NCBI GenBank assembly: GCA_965205655.1
Contig: CBDBIJ010000022.1
Coordinates: 21,758 to 85,757 of the forward strand
Origin: Candidatus Latescibacterota bacterium
GTDB taxonomy: Bacteria; Latescibacterota; UBA2968; UBA8231
Direction of reading: 5' to 3'
Length of the DNA stretch: 64,000 nucleotides
Part shown: in pieces, positions 3,154 to 55,473 of the stretch
How positions within the stretch are numbered: the stretch's first letter is position 1
Layout: each line of letters opens with the position of its first letter
The notes under the pieces: model-generated
What the model was told of the DNA's origin: nothing
The model's input: only the letters and a program-made list of their open reading frames with translations
Databases searched by the model: none
Program-made: the position numbers and the translations under genes

Positions 3154-3600
3154 TTTCTTCCGCTGGTTTCAGGTTGGGAGCTACAGCTCATCGACGCTAT
3201 TTATCGACGGCTACTTGCATGTGCACGGCGCAAAACCTTTCTCCTTGGGACCGTACTCTATCTTGATCTTCCTGTGTAGTATCGCCTCCTGAGACCTGGG
3301 CACTCCCTTGCTGGTTGTTCCCGATGCACTGATGGTCATGTCAGTCCTTTTGGGAATCCACCACTTCTTCGTCGTCATGCGTGCGTACTGAGTCTCGCCT
3401 GCGGCGATCATTCGATACTGCCGCATATCCGCTTTCCATAGCAATTTGAGAAACCCCGACAGAGCTTTGCCTCGGAGCCCATTGATCTCGTCGCAGATGA
3501 TGCGGTCGTCGTATTCGAGCAATCGATAGGAAATGACCCGTTGATTGATCACTTCCAGCTTCGGGTCGGAGAGGGTGTCCTCGTAAGAGAAGCTCTCATC

Positions 3601-4782
3601 TAGTGTATTGTCGTACAAATAACTTGTACTAATACATGTTGTGTGGTTAAGTTTCATCCAGACCTATTCCACAAACAAGGAACGGAGGAAACTCATGCCA
3701 CGCGGACGCTTTCTTCCACCTCTCGAAATGACGGGGCAAACTCGGCAGCAATTGGAATCAATGGCCAAATCTCGATCCCTGCCGCACGGTTTGGTGCGAC
3801 GCGCCGAGATCGTGTTGCTGGCCGCCGAGGGATGGCCCAACAAGGCCATCGGCGAAGCTGTGGGGCTGTCACAAGTGACCGTCGGCAAGTGGCGTCGTCG
3901 CTTCGTGGAAAACGGCCTCAACGGGTTGTACGACGAGCTGCGACCCGGTGCGCCCCGATCGATCTCGGACGAACAAGTGGCCGAGGTGGTATACAAGACA
4001 CTGAAGACCAAGCCGGAGGACAAAACCCAGTGGACGGTGCGCTCCATGGGCGAGGAGACCGGCCTGACCAAGGACGCGGTCCATCGCATCTGGCGCACAT
4101 TCGGCTTACAGCCGCACCGGACCCAGAATTTCAAGCTGTCCACTGATCCTTTCTTCGTGGATAAGGTGCGCGATGTTGTGGGCTTGTATCTCAACCCGCC
4201 CGACCATGCCGTCGTCCTGTGCGTTGACGAGAAGAGCCAAGTGCAGGCTCTGGAGCGCAGTCAGCCGTTGCTGCCGCTGGGCCTGGGCTACGCGGAGGGC
4301 GTCACCCACGACTACAAGCGACACGGCACCACAACGCTGTTTGCCGCTCTGGATGTGGCCACCGGTGAAGTCCTGACTCAGTGCAAGCCTCGTCATCGCC
4401 ATCAGGAGTTTTTGCAGTTCCTACGCCATATCGACGCGAACGTGCCTGCGGATCTGGACGTTCACTTGATCGTCGACAACTACGGCACCCACAAGTACGC
4501 CAGCGTCAAGAAGTGGTTGGCCAGCCGGCCCCGATTCCACCTCCACTTTACTCCGACCTACGCCTCGTGGCTCAACCAGGTCGAGATCTGGTTCAACATC
4601 ATCACGCGGCGAGCCATCCGGCGTGGCTCATTCCGCAAGGTCAAAGAGCTCATTCAGAGGATCGAGCGCTACACCGACAAATGGAACGCCAACGCCCATC
4701 CCTTTGGGTGGACGGCCACGGCCGACTCGATCCTTGCCAAGGTCAAACGACTATGTCAATGTATTTCTGCGACAGCACACTA
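3601..4782 (+). mobile_element. IS630-family insertion sequence, apparently intact, with TA target duplications
   Basis: Imperfect terminal inverted repeats: GTGTATTGTCGTACAAATAAC (3603->) versus rc GTGTGCTGTCGCAGAAATACA (<-4780). TA at 3601-02 and at 4781-82. The flanks reconstruct a CTAG target (ctcatC-TA...TA-Gctcgg). Confidence 0.85.
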
Positions 4783-4783
4783 G
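3695..4783 (+). CDS. IS630-family DDE transposase (362 aa)
   Basis: N-terminal HTH region ([25 protein letters not shown]). DDE-type motifs CVDEKS, VDNYGTH and SWLNQVE. GGAGG lies 5 nt upstream of ATG 3695. The stop TAG is at 4781-4783. Confidence 0.9.
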
Positions 4784-5247
4784 CTCGGGCGGCCAGCACA
4801 TGCTGACGTTGGCGGCCAGTTTCGGCACGCCACCGTGTTTAACTTTCTTGATGATGTGCGGACCGTACTCAACAAATATATCCTGCCGATATCGATGCGC
4901 GAGCTCGATATACTCGGGAATCGCCCTGTCCTGGCAATTGACTAGCTTGAAGACTTCATACCAATCCTTGTGGGAGATCGATAAACGGACCGGCTCAGCC
5001 GACTCCTCCCGATGCTCGATCCCGCCGGCCTTCAGTAGGTTAATGATGACATCGGCGTGGTATCGAATGCCGTTCGTAGTCGCCGTTGGATCGTAGGCCG
5101 AACTCGCGGCCTTTTCCATCGCTGTGACGAGGCTGTTCCCGCTGACCGTGTGAAAGGAGGTCTCAGTGTGATGATCGGCGAACGCCGACGAGACGCCGTA
5201 GATCCCCGGCATCAGAAGCGGCATCAGGATGATACTGCTGCCTGCGA

Positions 5248-5508
5248 CTAGATTCGGAACCACTTGCTCGCCTTCTCTGCGACTGCTTCTACTGTTCCGA
5301 ACAGGTTGGCGATCAGGATCACGAGGTACTTCAGATTGGCGCCGAGGCCGTACGGCCATGTGCGCATCCTGTGGAGCTGCTCTCGGATATTGGTCTGGAA
5401 GTCGTAGTCCTCACGTAACTCCTTGCGCTTATCGGGATCGATCTTATCGTCCTCCAGTCGGGTACGGAGTTTGCCCAGCGATCCTTGCAACTCTATGTCC
5501 TGCTCCAT
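5248..5508 (-). CDS. Hypothetical 86-aa protein (charged helical N-terminus, C-terminal hydrophobic helix)
   Basis: ORF in the lower-GC block, on the same strand as its neighbours. Sequence: MEQDIELQGSLGKLRTRLEDDKIDPDKRKELRED...LKYLVILIANLFGTV. No family recognised. Confidence 0.4.
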   Translation of the reverse strand: MEQDIELQGSLGKLRTRLEDDKIDPDKRKELREDYDFQTNIREQLHRMRTWPYGLGANLKYLVILIANLFGTVEAVAEKASKWFRI

Positions 5509-46053: not shown

Positions 46054-48242
46054 GTGACCTCCACGACCGACACCGCTGCCGATCGCAGAAAGCTCGGCGC
46101 CTTCATCGGCGTCTTCACGCCCTCGATTCTGACCATCCTCGGCGTCATCATGTACCTGCGCGCCGGTTGGGTAATAGGCAACGCCGGGCTGCTGCCCACC
46201 TTTGGCATCGTCGCCCTGGCCAACGCCATCACCTTCGTCACCGCCCTTTCTATCTCCGCCGTCGCCACCAACATGCGGATCGGCCTGGGCGGTCCCTACT
46301 ACATCATCTCCCGCAGCCTCGGGCTGGAGATTGGGGGCGCTATCGGGCTTCCCCTGTACCTGTCGCAGATCCTCTCTGTGACACTCTACAGCTTCGGGTT
46401 TGCGGAATCACTGCGGTTCGTGTGGCCGGAAGTTCCCGTCCAGCCCGTCGCCGTGGCGACCATCATTGTCGTCACGCTCATCTCGATTCGCGGTGCCGCC
46501 CTGGCGCTGAAGCTTCAGCTGCCGATCATGCTCGCTGTCGGTCTCTCGCTCCTGTCACTGGCGGCAGGAGCTTCCTTCGAGCACAAGGTTCCCGTCTTCT
46601 GGAGTGACTACGCCGGCAGCGACGGGTTCTGGGACGTATTCGCCGTGTTCTTTCCCGCCGTTACCGGTATCATGGCGGGAGTGGCCCTTTCCGGCGACCT
46701 GCGCGACCCGCAGAAGGCTATCCCGAGGGGCACACTCGCCGCTGTCGGGGTAGGCTTCGTCGTTTACCTGGCCGTGCCCGTCATTCTCGCCTTCAATGCC
46801 ACGCCAGATGCGCTGCTCTCAGACAGCCTCGTCTGGACTGAGGTCGCGGTGGTGCCCGCCCTGGTCCTGCCCCGGTCTGTGGGGGGCGATCATCTCATCG
46901 GCGATGGGCAGCATCCTGGGAGGGCCGCGCACACTTCAAGCCCTGGCGCAAGACCGAATCGCACCGCGATTCTTCGGACGCCGTCGGCTCAAGACGGGAG
47001 AGTCCGCCGTATCCATCGCCGTGTCTGCCGCTATCGCCGTGGCCGCGGTGCTCCTGGGTGGGCTCAACGCCGTCGCCATGCTGGTGACCATGTTCTTCCT
47101 CACCACCTACGGCATGGCGAACCTCGTCGCCGGGCTCGAAAAGCTCGTCGCCGATCCGTCCTACCGGCCCAGTCTCAAAGTGCCGGGGGCCGTGTCTCTG
47201 GCAGGGGCGGTAGCCTGCTTCTGGGTCATGTTCGTCATCAGCGCTCCGGGATGTGTTATCGCCATTGCCGTCGAGCTGGGGGTGTGGGGATGGCTCAAAC
47301 GGCGGTGAGTGCGCAGCACCTGGGGCGACATGCGCCGAGGGCTGTGGATGACGCTGACGCGCTATGCCCTCGTCCAGCTGCGCTCTCTGCCTGAGAACCC
47401 GCGCAACTGGCGCCCGCACCTGCTGCTCTTGGCCGGAGATCTGCAGAAGCGCATCGGCCTGCTCCGCTTTGCCTCGTGGCTCAACCAGGAGCGCGGCATC
47501 ATGACGGTGTGCAACCTGGTAGTTGCTGACCGCGGCGGCGAAGAGAATCCGCCGGTACTCGAACAGGAAGAGGAGATGAGCGCCTTCCTCGAAGAGCGCG
47601 GCGTCATGGCGTTCAGCGAAGTCAACGTCGTCGACACTTTCGAGTCGGGCGTCGTGCACCTGGCGCAGGCCAACGGAATCGGCGGCGTGCGTTGCAACAC
47701 CTTGATGCTCGGGTGGACGGAAGATCCCCAGCGCATGGCCGCCTACTTCCGTATCATGCGCCGCGTGCGCCAGCTGCGCGGCCTGTCGATCATCATCTGC
47801 CGTCTGGAAGCGCGCAGCACCTTCGAGTGGAAGGAGCGGATTGATATCTGGTGGAGGGGCAGGCAGTCGAACGGCGACCTCATGCTGATGCTGGCCTATC
47901 TGCTGTCTCTCAACCCGGAGTGGGACGGCACCTCGATTACGGTCAAGAGTGTCGCCAGCAGCGAGACGGCCCGCGACGGGAATCGAGAAGGATCTCGAGA
48001 AGCTCATACCGAGATCCCGCATTCCCGCCGAAAGTCAGGTTATTCTCAAACCGTCCGATCAGACTGTGGCGCAGGTCATGCACGAACATTCGGCAGAGGC
48101 CGAATTGGTATTCATGGGCCTGCTCGAGCCCGACCCCGGCACCGAAGTCGATTACGCCAAACGCCTGCTGGAGATATCCGAGGGATTCCCCAGCGTCGTA
48201 CTCGTGCGCAACGCGGGCGAGTTTGTGGGCCAGCTCGTGTGA
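46054..48242 (+). pseudogene. SLC12-type cation-chloride cotransporter homolog (APC superfamily) with C-terminal cytoplasmic domain, in four pieces
   Basis: N-terminus RKLGAFIGVFTPSILTILGVIMYLRAGWVIGNAG. First frame change at the C4 run 46870-46873 (..VVPALVLP | GLWGAIISSAMGSILGGPRTLQALA..). In-frame TGA at 47306-47308 (..GWLKRR*VRSTWGDMRRGLW..NWRPHLLLLAG..). A further frame change near 47965-47985 (..VKSVASSE.. | ..IEKDLEKLIPRSRIPAESQVIL..). Confidence 0.75.
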
Positions 48243-48278
48243 GAGGCGCGTCCTCGCGCGCGTTCAGCCGACGCCCCG

Positions 48279-49421
48279 TCAGCTGGGGTTCCAGACCCTC
48301 TCGAATAGATTCAGCCAGTTCCCGCCGAGCAGCTTGACCATATCCTCCGCCCCGTACCCCCGCTTCATCAGCGCATCGGCCAGGTTCGGAAACTCCGCCG
48401 GACTGTCGATCCCCTTCGGTTGAAAACTGAGCTCGGTGTAACGCACCGTCGGGTCGGCGAATGTCGATGGGTACTTCGTTCCCTGCTGGGATGTGATATA
48501 GTGCCAGAACTCAAGCGGTTGATCGTGCGTCGAATCGGTGCCGATGGCCACGTGATCGATGCCGATCCGCTGCACCATGTCGTCGATGGCGTCGACGAAG
48601 TCCTCCACTGTCGAATCGAACCCTTTGGGCAGAAAGCTGGCGAATGACGTCGCTCCCACGAGGCCGCCTTTTTCGGCCACAAGCCTCAGCGCATCCTCTT
48701 CTTTGTTGCGCGGATGGTCGCAGAAGCTGCGCGCGTTGGCATGCGTAATGGCTACCGGCTGCTCCGACAGTTCGGTCGCATCCATCGTCGTCTTCGGGCC
48801 CACGTGCGACAGATCGATCACAATGCCCAGCTGATTCATCTCGCGCACTGCGTCGACGCCGAAGTTGGTCAGGCCGCAGTCGTTGCGCTCCCAGCAGCCG
48901 CTGCCGAGCAGGTTGCACTCGTGGTAGGTCAGCTGAATGACACGCACCCCTAGTGTGCTGTCGCAGAGATTACTTTAATAAGTTTGTAGGCCCTGAGGCT
49001 GCACGTTCTCTCTGGTAAGCCGACGGGCCAAACCGCTTTGAGGCTCGATACTAATGCAACAAATTTCCGCGACGCCACACTAGCGTGTGGAATATTCCCA
49101 GTCTATCGAGCTCGTTCTCTATCGGGAGGCGTTCTGAAAGCTGAGAACGATCCCGGTCTTGTCCGCCTGCTTCGCGGTCCGAATATCCGCCGTTTCCTTC
49201 ACCTGCAGTATGTCACCGCGTTGGCGAAAACGCCGCATCCACACCGACAGGTGTGCCATCGTCTGCACGAAATTCTCCCACGTCGCGACTGTGGCACTGA
49301 TGGCGGTGATGTTGCCGGCCCGCAACCGCTCGAACACGGCGTCGCTCTCCCAGTTGCTGACGCTCAGTCCATCGATGACGACTGCCTCGTCGTAGATCTT
49401 TCTCGCTTCACTCGGCATCAT
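48279..49421 (-). pseudogene. Membrane dipeptidase (peptidase M19), interrupted by a MITE and frameshifted
   Basis: N-terminus MMPSEARKIYDEAVVIDGL... (AAGGAG RBS) reaches ..SFQNAS. The frame changes at the G3 run 49124-49126 into PIENELDRLGIFHTL, which stops at the MITE. It resumes as GVRVIQLTYHECN...IDLSHVG...ITHANARSFCDHPRNK... Confidence 0.8.
48951..49082. mobile_element. 128-bp MITE with IS630-type ends, plus TA target duplications
   Basis: C-TA-[GTGTGCTGTCGCAGAGATTAC...CAAATTTCCGCGACGCCACAC]-TA-G. The first 15 nt are identical to the rc of the right end of the IS630 copy at 4766-4780. No ORF. Confidence 0.85.
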
Positions 49422-53261: not shown

Positions 53262-53298
53262 GATCCGGTTCCGCCTGGCGTCCTCACACCATGAGCCG

Positions 53299-55473
53299 CT
53301 AAGTGCGACCTCCACGATGGTCGCGCAGCTGAATCGCCTCGGCTGCCGTCGACAGCAGCTCGGGAACCCTGAAGGGCTTCTTCAGACAAAAGTCGAAGTG
53401 TGCCAGTCGGGGATCGGTCTCGCCGATGTCCCAACCGGTAACCAGAATCGTGGGCAGCGTTGCGTCTCGCGAGCGCAGGGTCTGCGCCAGTGCATCGCCC
53501 GGCAGGCCGGGCATGCCCAGGTCGATCAGTGCGGCATCGAACCATCCTGAGTTGAATTCGTCAAGTACGGCCGCGGCGTTGTCGTGGGATGACACCTCGT
53601 GTTTGCCCGAAAGGACTTTCACCATGAACTCCCTCGCCGTATCGTCGTCCTCGACGACGAGCAGTCGACCACTGCGAACCGGCGCCTGTTCCTTCGCCGG
53701 CGGCAGCTCGTCATCTTCGGCTGCGACAGGCAGCCTGATTGTGAACTTGGAACCGATACCCGGTGAGCTCTCGATCTCGACGGATCCCCCCCAACTGTTC
53801 ACCGTATTATAAACGGTGTACAGTCCAAGTCCCGTGCCGACTGCCGCTTTCGTCGTAAAGAACGGCTCGAAGATCCGACGCTGCGTGCTGGTGTCCATCC
53901 CCACACCCGAGTCTTCCACACTGAGCAGCACGTCTTCACCGTCTGCCCTGAGGCACAGTGTGAGTGAGCCTCCCTGGGGCATTGCGTCGATGGCGTTGAA
54001 CAGCAGGTTGAGCAGGACATCGTGGAGTCCCGTTTCAGTCCCCCGGACGAGGGGTACCGACTCATCTAAGTGCGTGATCATCTTGATCGTCGATCCTTCT
54101 GCTTCGGCAGCGTCCTTCCAGCGAGGTCGGGCCGATTCCACGGCGCGCTTTACCGCCGCTGTCGCCGACACCGCGCCCCCTTCTTCCTCTCTCTTGTGAG
54201 GTAGCGCACCGTGCAGCTGACGCACGAGTTCGGCGGCCCGTGTCGCGGAGAACATGATCGCGTCGATCTGTTTTTTCGCCCCGGGATCCTTGACTTGGTC
54301 CTGCAGGATCTCCGCCGGGATGAGTATCCCAAGCAGCATATTGTTGAGGTTGTGACTGACGCCGGCCGCCATCTCGCCCAGCGCGCGCAGCCGTTCGAGG
54401 CGCACCATCTCGCGCTCGGCTTGCGCGAGCTGCTTCAACATGTCGTTGATCGTCGTCCCCAGATCGGCGAGCTCGTCCGATCCTGATACGGAGACGGCGG
54501 CCTCGAGATCCTTCTCTTCGCCGACTTTGCGAACACTTTGGCCGAGGTCGGCGAGTCTCCTCAGGACTGTGCCCTCGAGGAGCAGCACGGTAACTGCGGC
54601 GAAAAAGACGCCTGCCACCGCCACTGCAGTTATCAGGTACCGAACTGTGAGCAGCCCCTGCTGGTATATTTCGCGTGTCGTCTCCACGCGCAGTAGGACG
54701 GCATCCCGATCGTACAGATCCTTCATGATCGTGTACCCGGCCAGCCTGGTGTCGCTCAACGGCTGAACATGAATGCGCGATTCCGGGCCCAGTGCCGATC
54801 GGGCCTCCTGGTAGTCGGGCTCGAGCGTGCCCTTATCGAGCCGTTCCCGCGACAATGAAAGCTGAGTGATGGACTGCAGTCGCTCTACCTCGTGATCGTC
54901 GAGGTAACGTCCCATGATCACAACGCCTCGGATGGGGCCTTCGTGTTCGCTGGTCACAATGGGGCGCGCTGCGATGAGCATTGGAGCGTCCGGCAACAGC
55001 ACGATCCCAGTTCGTTTGCTGAGAGGTTCGGGCAGTCCCAGCAAACCGGTCTCGGTCAGATGTTCGGAAAAGGAAAGCGGGACCTGGACGCGCTTGTCCG
55101 CGCTCAAGTCGTAGCCCTTTTGAAAAACTACCTTGCCTTCCAGGTCGACTATGGCTATCAGATTGATGCGCAAACTCGCTACGGCGAGTGTCGCGTCCAC
55201 CAGGTTGGACTCTATGAACTCTTCGTTCGCATCGACGACGAATTCGTAGGTGTCATCCCAGCCGGACCAATCGATTGCCGTCCTGCTGAGGTAGCTTATC
55301 TCCGCTTCGATGGCCGCAACAGCCTGCCGTACCTGCCGCTCGGCAGCCTCCCTCTCGACTTGACGGAATCCATCCAGAAGGATGGTTTGTCCCAATGCGT
55401 ACAGACTGGCCACGAGTGCCAGTGTTGTGAGGGCGACGATCAGAAGCGTTTTCTGACGCAGACTCATGGTCAT
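53299..55473 (-). CDS. Hybrid sensor histidine kinase (N-terminal TM, extracytoplasmic CHASE4-like sensor, HAMP, HisKA, HATPase_c, REC)
   Basis: TM helix LLIVALTTLALVASLYAL. H-box GEMAAGVSHNLNN. N/G boxes ..LLNLLFNAIDAM.., ..DSGVGMD.., ..GTGLGL... C-terminal REC (LLVVEDDD...DLGMPG..). The sensor-domain assignment is tentative. Confidence 0.85.
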   Translation of the reverse strand: MTMSLRQKTLLIVALTTLALVASLYALGQTILLDGFRQVEREAAERQVRQAVAAIEAEISYLSRTAIDWSGWDDTYEFVVDANEEFIESNLVDATLAVASLRINLIAIVDLEGKVVFQKGYDLSADKRVQVPLSFSEHLTETGLLGLPEPLSKRTGIVLLPDAPMLIAARPIVTSEHEGPIRGVVIMGRYLDDHEVERLQSITQLSLSRERLDKGTLEPDYQEARSALGPESRIHVQPLSDTRLAGYTIMKDLYDRDAVLLRVETTREIYQQGLLTVRYLITAVAVAGVFFAAVTVLLLEGTVLRRLADLGQSVRKVGEEKDLEAAVSVSGSDELADLGTTINDMLKQLAQAEREMVRLERLRALGEMAAGVSHNLNNMLLGILIPAEILQDQVKDPGAKKQIDAIMFSATRAAELVRQLHGALPHKREEEGGAVSATAAVKRAVESARPRWKDAAEAEGSTIKMITHLDESVPLVRGTETGLHDVLLNLLFNAIDAMPQGGSLTLCLRADGEDVLLSVEDSGVGMDTSTQRRIFEPFFTTKAAVGTGLGLYTVYNTVNSWGGSVEIESSPGIGSKFTIRLPVAAEDDELPPAKEQAPVRSGRLLVVEDDDTAREFMVKVLSGKHEVSSHDNAAAVLDEFNSGWFDAALIDLGMPGLPGDALAQTLRSRDATLPTILVTGWDIGETDPRLAHFDFCLKKPFRVPELLSTAAEAIQLRDHRGGRT

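Follow-up and report, generated by a model that had tools for sequence, protein, structure and literature searches.

Descriptions of MITEs that pair with IS630-family transposases go back to RUP/IS630-Spn1. RUP, a 107-bp MITE of Streptococcus pneumoniae, targets TA and resembles IS630-Spn1, its proposed mobiliser, in its TIRs (Oggioni & Claverys 1999, reviewed in PMC2229807 and PMC3049150). In cyanobacteria, the MITE Nezha has ISNpu3-like elements as its proposed mobiliser (Zhou et al. 2008, cited in PMC3049150 and PMC10969869). The preferred target reported for IS630 is CTAG (Tenzen & Ohtsubo 1991, listed in a table of PMC2577343).

The window, by which is meant the whole 64-kb stretch of DNA that was analysed, contains a gene for an M19 dipeptidase that is interrupted by a block of 128 bp. 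The reading of this block as an IS630-type MITE is supported, having passed every available test. The full account, in which a MITE mobilised in trans by an IS630-family transposase inserted at the TA of a CTAG site and disrupted the gene, is given a probability of roughly 0.9. The features on which this account is built are listed in Table 1.

Table 1. Features of the window and copies of the 128-bp element in other loci (positions refer to the window unless a locus is named)
Feature	Position	Strand	Remarks
IS630-family insertion sequence, full-length, 1178 bp	3603..4780	+	TA/TA in CTA-...-TAG; candidate transposase source
Transposase ORF, 362 aa	3695..4783	+	ATG at 3695; NF033545, DDE_3 and HTH domains
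Dipeptidase, C-terminal part (GVRVIQLTYH... to stop)	48279..48950	-	96.6% identical, gapless, to L021 14158-14833
Left TA of target-site duplication	48951..48952	.	context C-TA; 130 bp absent here from uninterrupted relatives
MITE body	48953..49080	.	128 bp, no conserved ORF, 51% GC, predicted hairpin; edges set by alignment to four other copies
Left terminal inverted repeat, GTGTGCTGTCGCAGAGATTAC	48953..48973	+	15-nt tip match to IS right end
Right terminal inverted repeat	49060..49080	-	reverse complement GTGTGGCGTCGCGGAAATTTG; invariant in 5/5 copies
Right TA of target-site duplication	49081..49082	.	context TA-G
Dipeptidase, N-terminal part (MMPSEARK... to ...GIFHTL)	49083..49421	-	96.8% identical, one gap, to L021 14835-15207; 1-nt deletion ~49125
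1-nt deletion	49124..49126	.	window TCTATCGG-GAGGCG vs L021 TCTATCGGTGAGGCG; frameshift independent of MITE
MITE copy	L003 5063-5190		127/128 identical to window copy (99.2%)
MITE copy	L002 6835-6962		126/128 identical to window copy (98.4%)
MITE copy	L005 868-996		94.6% identical to window copy
MITE copy	L005 1919-2039		89.9% identical to window copy; 8-bp internal deletion

The 128-bp element and its copies

On the + strand the locus is laid out as ...ACGCACCCC-TA-GTGTGCTGTCGCAGAGATTAC...CAAATTTCCGCGACGCCACAC-TA-GCGTGTGGAATATTCCC..., where the block extends from the first base of GTGTGCTGTCGCAGAGATTAC to the last base of CAAATTTCCGCGACGCCACAC, and the junctions read ...cacccC-TA/GTGTGCTGTCGCAGAGATTAC...CAAATTTCCGCGACGCCACAC/TA-Gcgtg. 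The initial annotation had described an ORF-less block of 128 bp at 48953-49080, flanked by TA/TA in a C-TA-G context and bounded by imperfect inverted repeats, and its positions and sequences are correct. An inverted-repeat search finds arms of 34 nt with 74% complementarity (48950-48983 and 49050-49083), which span the CTAG junctions, and the right end of the element matches the left end at 15/21 positions. The GC content of the surrounding DNA is ~60-63%, well above that of the element. The sole internal ORF encodes 42 aa on the minus strand and is broken by indels in two of the other copies, L005a and L005b.

Further copies were sought in a collection of 185,579 species-representative genomes, from which the window itself is absent, with the pattern GTGTNNNGTCGCNGANNT-N(75-105)-ANNTCNGCGACNNNACAC. 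The scan returned three copies in the 6.7-Mb chromosome OZ244235.1, which comes from an independent MAG labelled Candidatus Latescibacterota, together with one element of unrelated interior in a Gemmatimonas MAG. A fourth OZ244235.1 copy (L005 1919-2039) was found only by BLAST within the fetched loci. Besides the single copy in the 64-kb window there are thus four further TIR-bounded copies at unrelated loci, all of them in OZ244235.1. The TIR-gap pattern found no copy of the 128-bp family in the JGI metagenomes, only a 117-bp MITE with an unrelated interior. Pattern scans catch only copies with intact TIRs at the right spacing, so the copy numbers are lower bounds.

The five copies in the two genomes have pairwise identities of 86-99%. 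Their flanks are unrelated, and aligned identity breaks off precisely at the GTGT...ACAC limits: the block belongs to a sharply bounded repeat family. Three of the five copies (window, L003 and L005b) are flanked by TA/TA, and one base is changed in each of the other two (TC/TA in L002, TA/TG in L005a), consistent with later point mutation.

The IS630-family insertion sequence and its target

The initial annotation had also placed an IS630-family IS at 3603-4780, and this assignment is borne out by the transposase and by the TA/TA at the element's edges (3601-3602 and 4781-4782). The single 362-aa ORF is intact and scores 275 bits against NCBIfam NF033545 ‘IS630 family transposase’, for which the cut-off is 100. 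In Pfam it matches PF13358 DDE_3 (2.4e-23) and, at the N-terminus, HTH_23, HTH_28, HTH_29 and HTH_32. The catalytic residues are D178, D261 and E297 with DD35E spacing, in a motif reading of the sequence rather than a structural alignment. The TIRs of the IS match each other at 15/21 positions, and a length of 1178 bp with one ORF and TIRs fits the IS630-family range of ~1.1-1.4 kb. In transposase profile, TA duplication, CTAG preference and element length, this is an IS630-family element.

The transposase ORF reaches the last base of the IS (...ISATAH), and the TAG stop at 4781-4783 lies outside the element, being composed of the TA of the target-site duplication and the G of the CTAG target. 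The transposase gene therefore lacks a stop codon within the element and borrows TAG from the target. A literature search for target-supplied stop codons in the IS630 family found nothing useful.

Homologues of the transposase number in the thousands. Copies of the window IS occur at 95% nucleotide identity in L001 and L010. A related IS (P0010-type), with a transposase 83% identical, occupies ten independent sites (L011-L020); its termini are GTGT...ACAC, and its junctions read CTA-GTGTCATG...GGACAC-TAG at nine of the ten.

In the window, IS and MITE are both inserted at the TA of a CTAG. This tetranucleotide is depleted, with 17 sites against 71-226 expected, and 4/17 are the junctions of the two elements; the two insertions therefore used 2 of ~15 original CTAG sites, among ~1,270 TA dinucleotides. 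Insertion at a TA within CTAG, as proposed in the initial annotation, is supported for the MITE, and the same type of junction is found in the related full-length ISs. Such a CTAG preference belongs to IS630 itself and does not extend to every member of the family.

Terminal sequences and the source of the transposase

The link between the MITE and the IS lies in their termini. There are exactly two occurrences of the 15-mer GTGTGCTGTCGCAGA in the 64 kb, one being the left tip of the MITE (48953-48967) and the other, as the reverse complement, the right tip of the IS (4766-4780). Both occurrences are element tips adjoining CTA, and the identity is 18 nt if the CTA is counted. The proposed identity of the MITE left end to the IS right terminus thus holds at 15/15 positions. 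The pattern GTGTnnnGTCGYnnAnnT has exactly four matches in the window, which are the four termini of MITE and IS, all preceded by CTA. Each 21-nt terminus retrieves the other three with only 1-2 chance matches (128,000 21-mers, ≤6 mismatches).

Over 21 nt, the left end of the MITE matches the right terminus (IRR) of the window IS at 17/21 positions and the IRR of the related P0010-type IS at 18/21. The other end had been likened to the left terminus of the IS, and here the resemblance is weak: the MITE right end matches the window IRL at 12/21 positions and the window IRR at 15/21, so that the IRR is the better fit. The left end of the IS is itself divergent (GTGTATTGTCGTACAAAT), a poor match to the MITE ends at 12-15/21. 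To judge from these comparisons, both MITE ends look IRR-like and do not form an IRL/IRR pair. The interior of the MITE (approximately positions 22-107) has no similarity to the window IS, to any related IS retrieved or to the rest of the window. The MITE is therefore not a simple internal-deletion derivative of the window IS.

These comparisons bear on the identity of the helper. The IS copy at 3603-4780 may plausibly mobilise the MITE in trans. A tenable, if not favoured, alternative is that the element is a genuine IS630-type MITE whose helper is another IS from that IS630 clade, or that it is by now an immobile fossil. The closer match of its left end to the P0010-type IRR agrees with this alternative, as do the lack of resemblance between the IS left end and either MITE end, the unrelated interior, and the presence of the four other copies in a separate genome, OZ244235.1. 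However, it is the window IS that shares the exact tip identity, and this IS belongs to the same stretch of replicon and encodes a transposase in an intact ORF. An old fossil is also at odds with copies that are 98-99% identical, and with a presence/absence difference from a dipeptidase allele whose protein is 99.7% identical (below). Given 18/21 against 17/21 matches and the unrelated interior, the helper is therefore best described as an IS630-clade transposase, not demonstrably the one 45 kb away.

The interrupted dipeptidase gene

The insertion lies in the codons ACG-CTA-GGG (T-L-G) of a dipeptidase gene on the minus strand, where two ORFs now remain: 49421-49119 (MMPSEARK...SFQNASR*) and 48947-48279, which starts at MRVIQLTYH.... 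Excising the 128 bp and one TA gives ...PIENELDRLGIFHTLGVRVIQLTYH... in one frame and rejoins PIENELDRLGIFHTL to GVRVIQLTYH. The rejoined and repaired protein matches Pfam Peptidase_M19 (PF01244) with an E-value of 2.6e-79 over residues 26-331. The predicted product of the interrupted gene is truncated after ~113 residues, followed by nine element-encoded residues (VWRRGNLLH*).

Uninterrupted relatives of the gene are available at increasing distances. The closest is P0121, from an 85.7-kb ENA contig, an uninterrupted dipeptidase of 336 aa that reads ...SFQNASPIENELDRLGIFHTLGVRVIQLTYH... across the site; it is identical at 335/336 positions (99.7%) to the product of the window gene once the block and one TA are removed and one base is restored. 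L021, from a 2.05-Mb ENA contig and located via the neighbouring transporter, is syntenic with 37.6-58.9 kb of the window at 94-98% nucleotide identity. Its dipeptidase gene is intact, and the alignment has a single gap there of 130 nt at window 48950-49079, equivalent to 48951-49080 given the ambiguity of the repeated TA. The L021 site is CCCC-GAG-CGCG (Leu CTC); reading CTC-G, the L021 genome therefore has no CTAG at this position. The empty CTAG allele is seen at the protein level only (P0121, ...HTLGV...), and L021 is the closest uninterrupted relative at the DNA level. Two more distant orthologues, L008 and L009 (81-82% nucleotide identity), also lack the block. The alignment of orthologues suggested in the initial annotation thus shows relatives that lack exactly the 130 bp, and no homologous coding sequence occupies the insertion position in any orthologue compared (L021, L008, L009 and P0121).

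The gene carries a second change. One base is missing at ~49125 in the window relative to L021, L008 and L009, and P0121 carries SFQNASPIENELD uninterrupted across this position. The N-terminal part of the dipeptidase (49421 to ~49128, ...IVLSFQNAS) is accordingly in a different frame from PIENELD. The claim that excision of the element restores the frame is therefore correct for the junction, which is mended in frame, and incorrect for the gene as a whole: the 1-nt deletion persists after excision, so the gene stays broken. Either a genuine second lesion or an error in the consensus could account for the missing base. Other ORF-breaking 1-nt indels separate the window from L021 at 38405, 42424, 43514/43543, 46870 and 47981, the last two within an SLC12-type transporter. 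They suggest consensus errors and an imperfect consensus quality. The change at 47981 is common to P0361, a protein from another assembly that is encoded on the 85.7-kb ENA contig of P0121, and at least some of the indels are therefore genuine. As to pervasive frameshifting of the window, a GC3 frame map and Pfam matches show the overlapping same-strand ORF pairs to be ordinary neighbouring genes, and the informative list of indels came from the comparison with L021.

An imperfect consensus prompts one to ask if the insertion itself could be an artefact, a repeat copy mis-joined during metagenome assembly. The indels relative to L021 lend this some credence, although the one shared with P0361 means that not all of them are errors. 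The insert consists of exactly the element plus a TA, with perfect TA/TA at a CTAG and flanks that rejoin in frame, and a mis-join is unlikely to imitate a transposition product in this way; the 128-bp element is also present in an independent assembly (OZ244235.1). An assembly artefact is accordingly very improbable.

Other origins of the block

The block could alternatively be what is left of a full-length IS that underwent internal deletion in situ within the dipeptidase gene, and so was never mobile as a small unit. Its termini are IS-like, and the left end even keeps the final six codons of the transposase along with its stop (ISATAH*), but the interior is not similar to that of the IS, and a 128-bp unit with the same interior is found at four other unrelated loci. 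Such a multi-copy distribution effectively refutes the deletion remnant, which can be regarded as barely credible.

MITEs generally fold as long hairpins. The 128-bp element is predicted to form one too, and it folds better than shuffled sequences on both strands (z = -2.1 and -3.0). A search of Rfam with the element gave hits at noise level only (the best with E = 0.098 and 16.5 bits, where the gathering score is 50), and scans of the element for sigma-70 promoters and terminators gave no signal. A structured RNA or REP-like palindromic regulatory repeat, spread by a route unrelated to IS630, would account for the folding, but the fold is simply that of the paired TIRs, neither Rfam nor the promoter and terminator consensus scans support such a function, the only internal ORF is broken by indels among the copies, and the duplicated TA, the CTAG setting and the tip identity with IS630 would all go unexplained, so that this origin is exceedingly improbable. 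The deletion remnant, the RNA or REP-like repeat and the assembly artefact were all rejected.

Proposed mechanism and its implications

The model with the best support is cut-and-paste transposition by an IS630-family DDE transposase; its chemistry and the action in trans are inferred from established knowledge of the IS630/Tc1/mariner superfamily. The element, itself gene-less, would (i) offer only its ~20-nt TIRs for recognition by an IS630-family DDE transposase, (ii) depend on that transposase being supplied in trans, (iii) be cut out and pasted into a TA dinucleotide, here the TA of a CTAG, and (iv) acquire its flanking TA duplication through repair of a 2-nt staggered cut. At the dipeptidase locus, the window transposase or a close relative would have mobilised the element, the insertion would be recent, and the gene is presumably non-functional.

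Whether the family is currently active in this uncultured FCB-group (Gemmatimonadota/Latescibacterota-like) soil lineage, with several MITE families derived from one IS630 clade, is more doubtful, and on balance such activity is rather unlikely. Three observations would speak for it: (i) copies are 98-99% identical across two assemblies, (ii) the window differs by presence or absence of the element from a 99.7% identical dipeptidase allele, and (iii) one IS630 clade has given rise to several independent MITE families, all of which seem to be built from two IRR-like ends. The sequences of these ends hint that the transposase of the clade may need the IRR sequence only. Were the family active and its ends IRR-only, it would provide a natural and tractable system for the study of IS630 end recognition and of target-dependent translation termination.

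For annotation, the two dipeptidase fragments represent one disrupted gene, to be called a pseudogene or interrupted gene and not two ORFs. The locus is a record of IS630-type MITE activity at a textbook TA-in-CTAG target in an uncultured and little-studied lineage, for which a non-exhaustive literature search found no description of MITEs. The insertion can also serve as a presence/absence marker between near-identical strains.

Comparison with known systems

The 128-bp element has the size, TIRs and target-site duplication of a MITE, exists in multiple copies, has TIRs related to those of an IS, and is matched by occupied and empty sites. Its resemblance to RUP is close. Each is ~100-130 bp long, lacks ORFs and carries TIRs that resemble those of an IS630-family IS in the same host; each uses and duplicates a TA target and exists as multiple, highly similar copies. 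For both, TIR similarity alone is what points to mobilisation in trans. The two differ in host, RUP belonging to Firmicutes and the window element to an uncultured FCB-group MAG, and in the sequence of their TIRs. They also differ in abundance, with ~108 copies of RUP against five found of the window family, and in location: RUP is mostly intergenic or within IS elements, whereas the window copy is intragenic in a metabolic gene.

Nezha follows the same logic, being a small non-autonomous element bounded by TIRs whose similarity to those of an autonomous IS links the two, and differs in host and sequence. With the IS630 family of the IS630/Tc1/mariner superfamily, the MITE shares an IS terminus, the TA target and its duplication. 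It differs from full family members in having no transposase gene, an unrelated interior and two IRR-like ends.

MITEs with the same type of terminus occur in other genomes: a family of 131 and 160 bp in the Gemmatimonas MAG (L004 2380-2510 and 7406-7565) and the 117-bp element of the JGI metagenomes (L006 and L007). They share the tip consensus GTGTnnnGTCGCAGAnnT with the window element, and three of the four L004 junctions have the CTA flank. Both ends of the 117-bp element match the IRR of the P0010-type IS without a mismatch over 18 nt. Their interiors are unrelated to that of the window element, and they are therefore separate families, arisen independently from the same IS630 clade. No new mechanism is involved at the dipeptidase locus: alongside RUP and Nezha, the 128-bp element is real, and an ordinary representative of a familiar kind of mobile element in bacteria.

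The transposase stop codon and the CTAG target

The transposase ORF of the full-length IS630-family copy in the window has no stop codon within the element: its TAG is made from the duplicated TA and the G of the CTAG target (4778-4783). At the right junctions of ten copies of a related IS (L011-L020), ...GGACAC runs directly into TAG in all but L015, where TAA follows. P0001, a 99% identical homologue of the transposase, continues for 13 additional residues beyond ...ISATEH (YIYQCMKPGTCRE), as if the element at that site were not followed by a stop codon. The left end of the 128-bp MITE in the dipeptidase gene keeps the final transposase codons together with the stop (ISATAH, then stop). A search of the IS630-family literature found no paper describing a transposase stop codon made by the target.

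CTAG is strongly depleted across the whole window, with 17 occurrences observed against an expected 71 (second-order Markov) to 226 (mononucleotide); the two IS630-type elements account for four of these 17 through their junctions. Because this target contains TAG, insertions of a CTAG-targeting element at gene ends may be common. A MITE copy in OZ244235.1 (locus L003) is inserted on the TAG (5061-5063) ending an upstream putative ORF of 110 aa (4731-5063), whose stop codon consists of the TSD TA and the first G of the MITE.

The full-length copy (3603-4780) itself splits a second interrupted ORF, on the minus strand at 3211-5359. When the element and one TA are removed in silico, ORFs 4751-5359 and 3211-3657 join in one continuous frame of ~320 aa; the fused protein has no match in Pfam.

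Differences from the syntenic contig L021

L021 is 94-98% identical to the window in the shared region. Next to the dipeptidase, an AA_permease/SLC12-type transporter (46054-48242, plus strand) lies in three frames, judged against its intact 759-aa counterpart in L021 (P0241). The insertion at 47981 is probably real, since the predicted protein P0361, from another assembly, has it in common. Several of the other single-base indels shorten ORFs that are intact in L021; they may be assembly consensus errors or real pseudogenisation (table).

Larger segments also differ. L021 carries ~1.9 kb extra between transporter and dipeptidase (L021 12301-14157; window counterpart 48263-48274), comprising two DUF3179 genes and a 285-aa gene, and a second insertion (L021 4343-5998; window ~41950) bearing an IS66-family transposase gene. 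The window in turn has 2.1 kb that L021 lacks (53283-55431).

Features located in the window, unless another locus is named
Feature	Position	Strand	Remark
1-nt insertion splitting transporter	46870		CCCC; CCC in L021
1-nt insertion splitting transporter	47981		GGGAATC; GGGATC in L021
Other single-base indels against L021	38405, 41990, 42424, 43514, 43543, 45858, 49125, 49573
Truncated glyoxalase	indel ~38405		intact in L021
Truncated 476-aa protein	indel 42424		intact in L021
Truncated 158-aa protein	indels 43514/43543		intact in L021
CHASE4-HAMP-HisKA-HATPase-receiver hybrid histidine kinase	53299-55473	minus	encoded by the 2.1 kb extra
131/160-bp MITE pair	L004 2380-2510, 7406-7565		Gemmatimonas sp. 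MAG JBDUBA010000250.1
117-bp MITE	L006 2090-2206, L007 667-783		JGI metagenomes

Other MITE families with the same tip type

Further MITE families share the tip type of the window MITE and have unrelated interiors. The 131/160-bp pair has identical 18-nt TIR tips (GTGTAGTGTCGCAGAAGT) and a CTA flank at three of its four junctions. The 117-bp MITE matches the right end (IRR) of the P0010-type IS, the related element of L011-L020, without mismatch across 18 nt at each of its two ends. Within this IS630 clade, MITEs seem to arise repeatedly from IRR-like ends.
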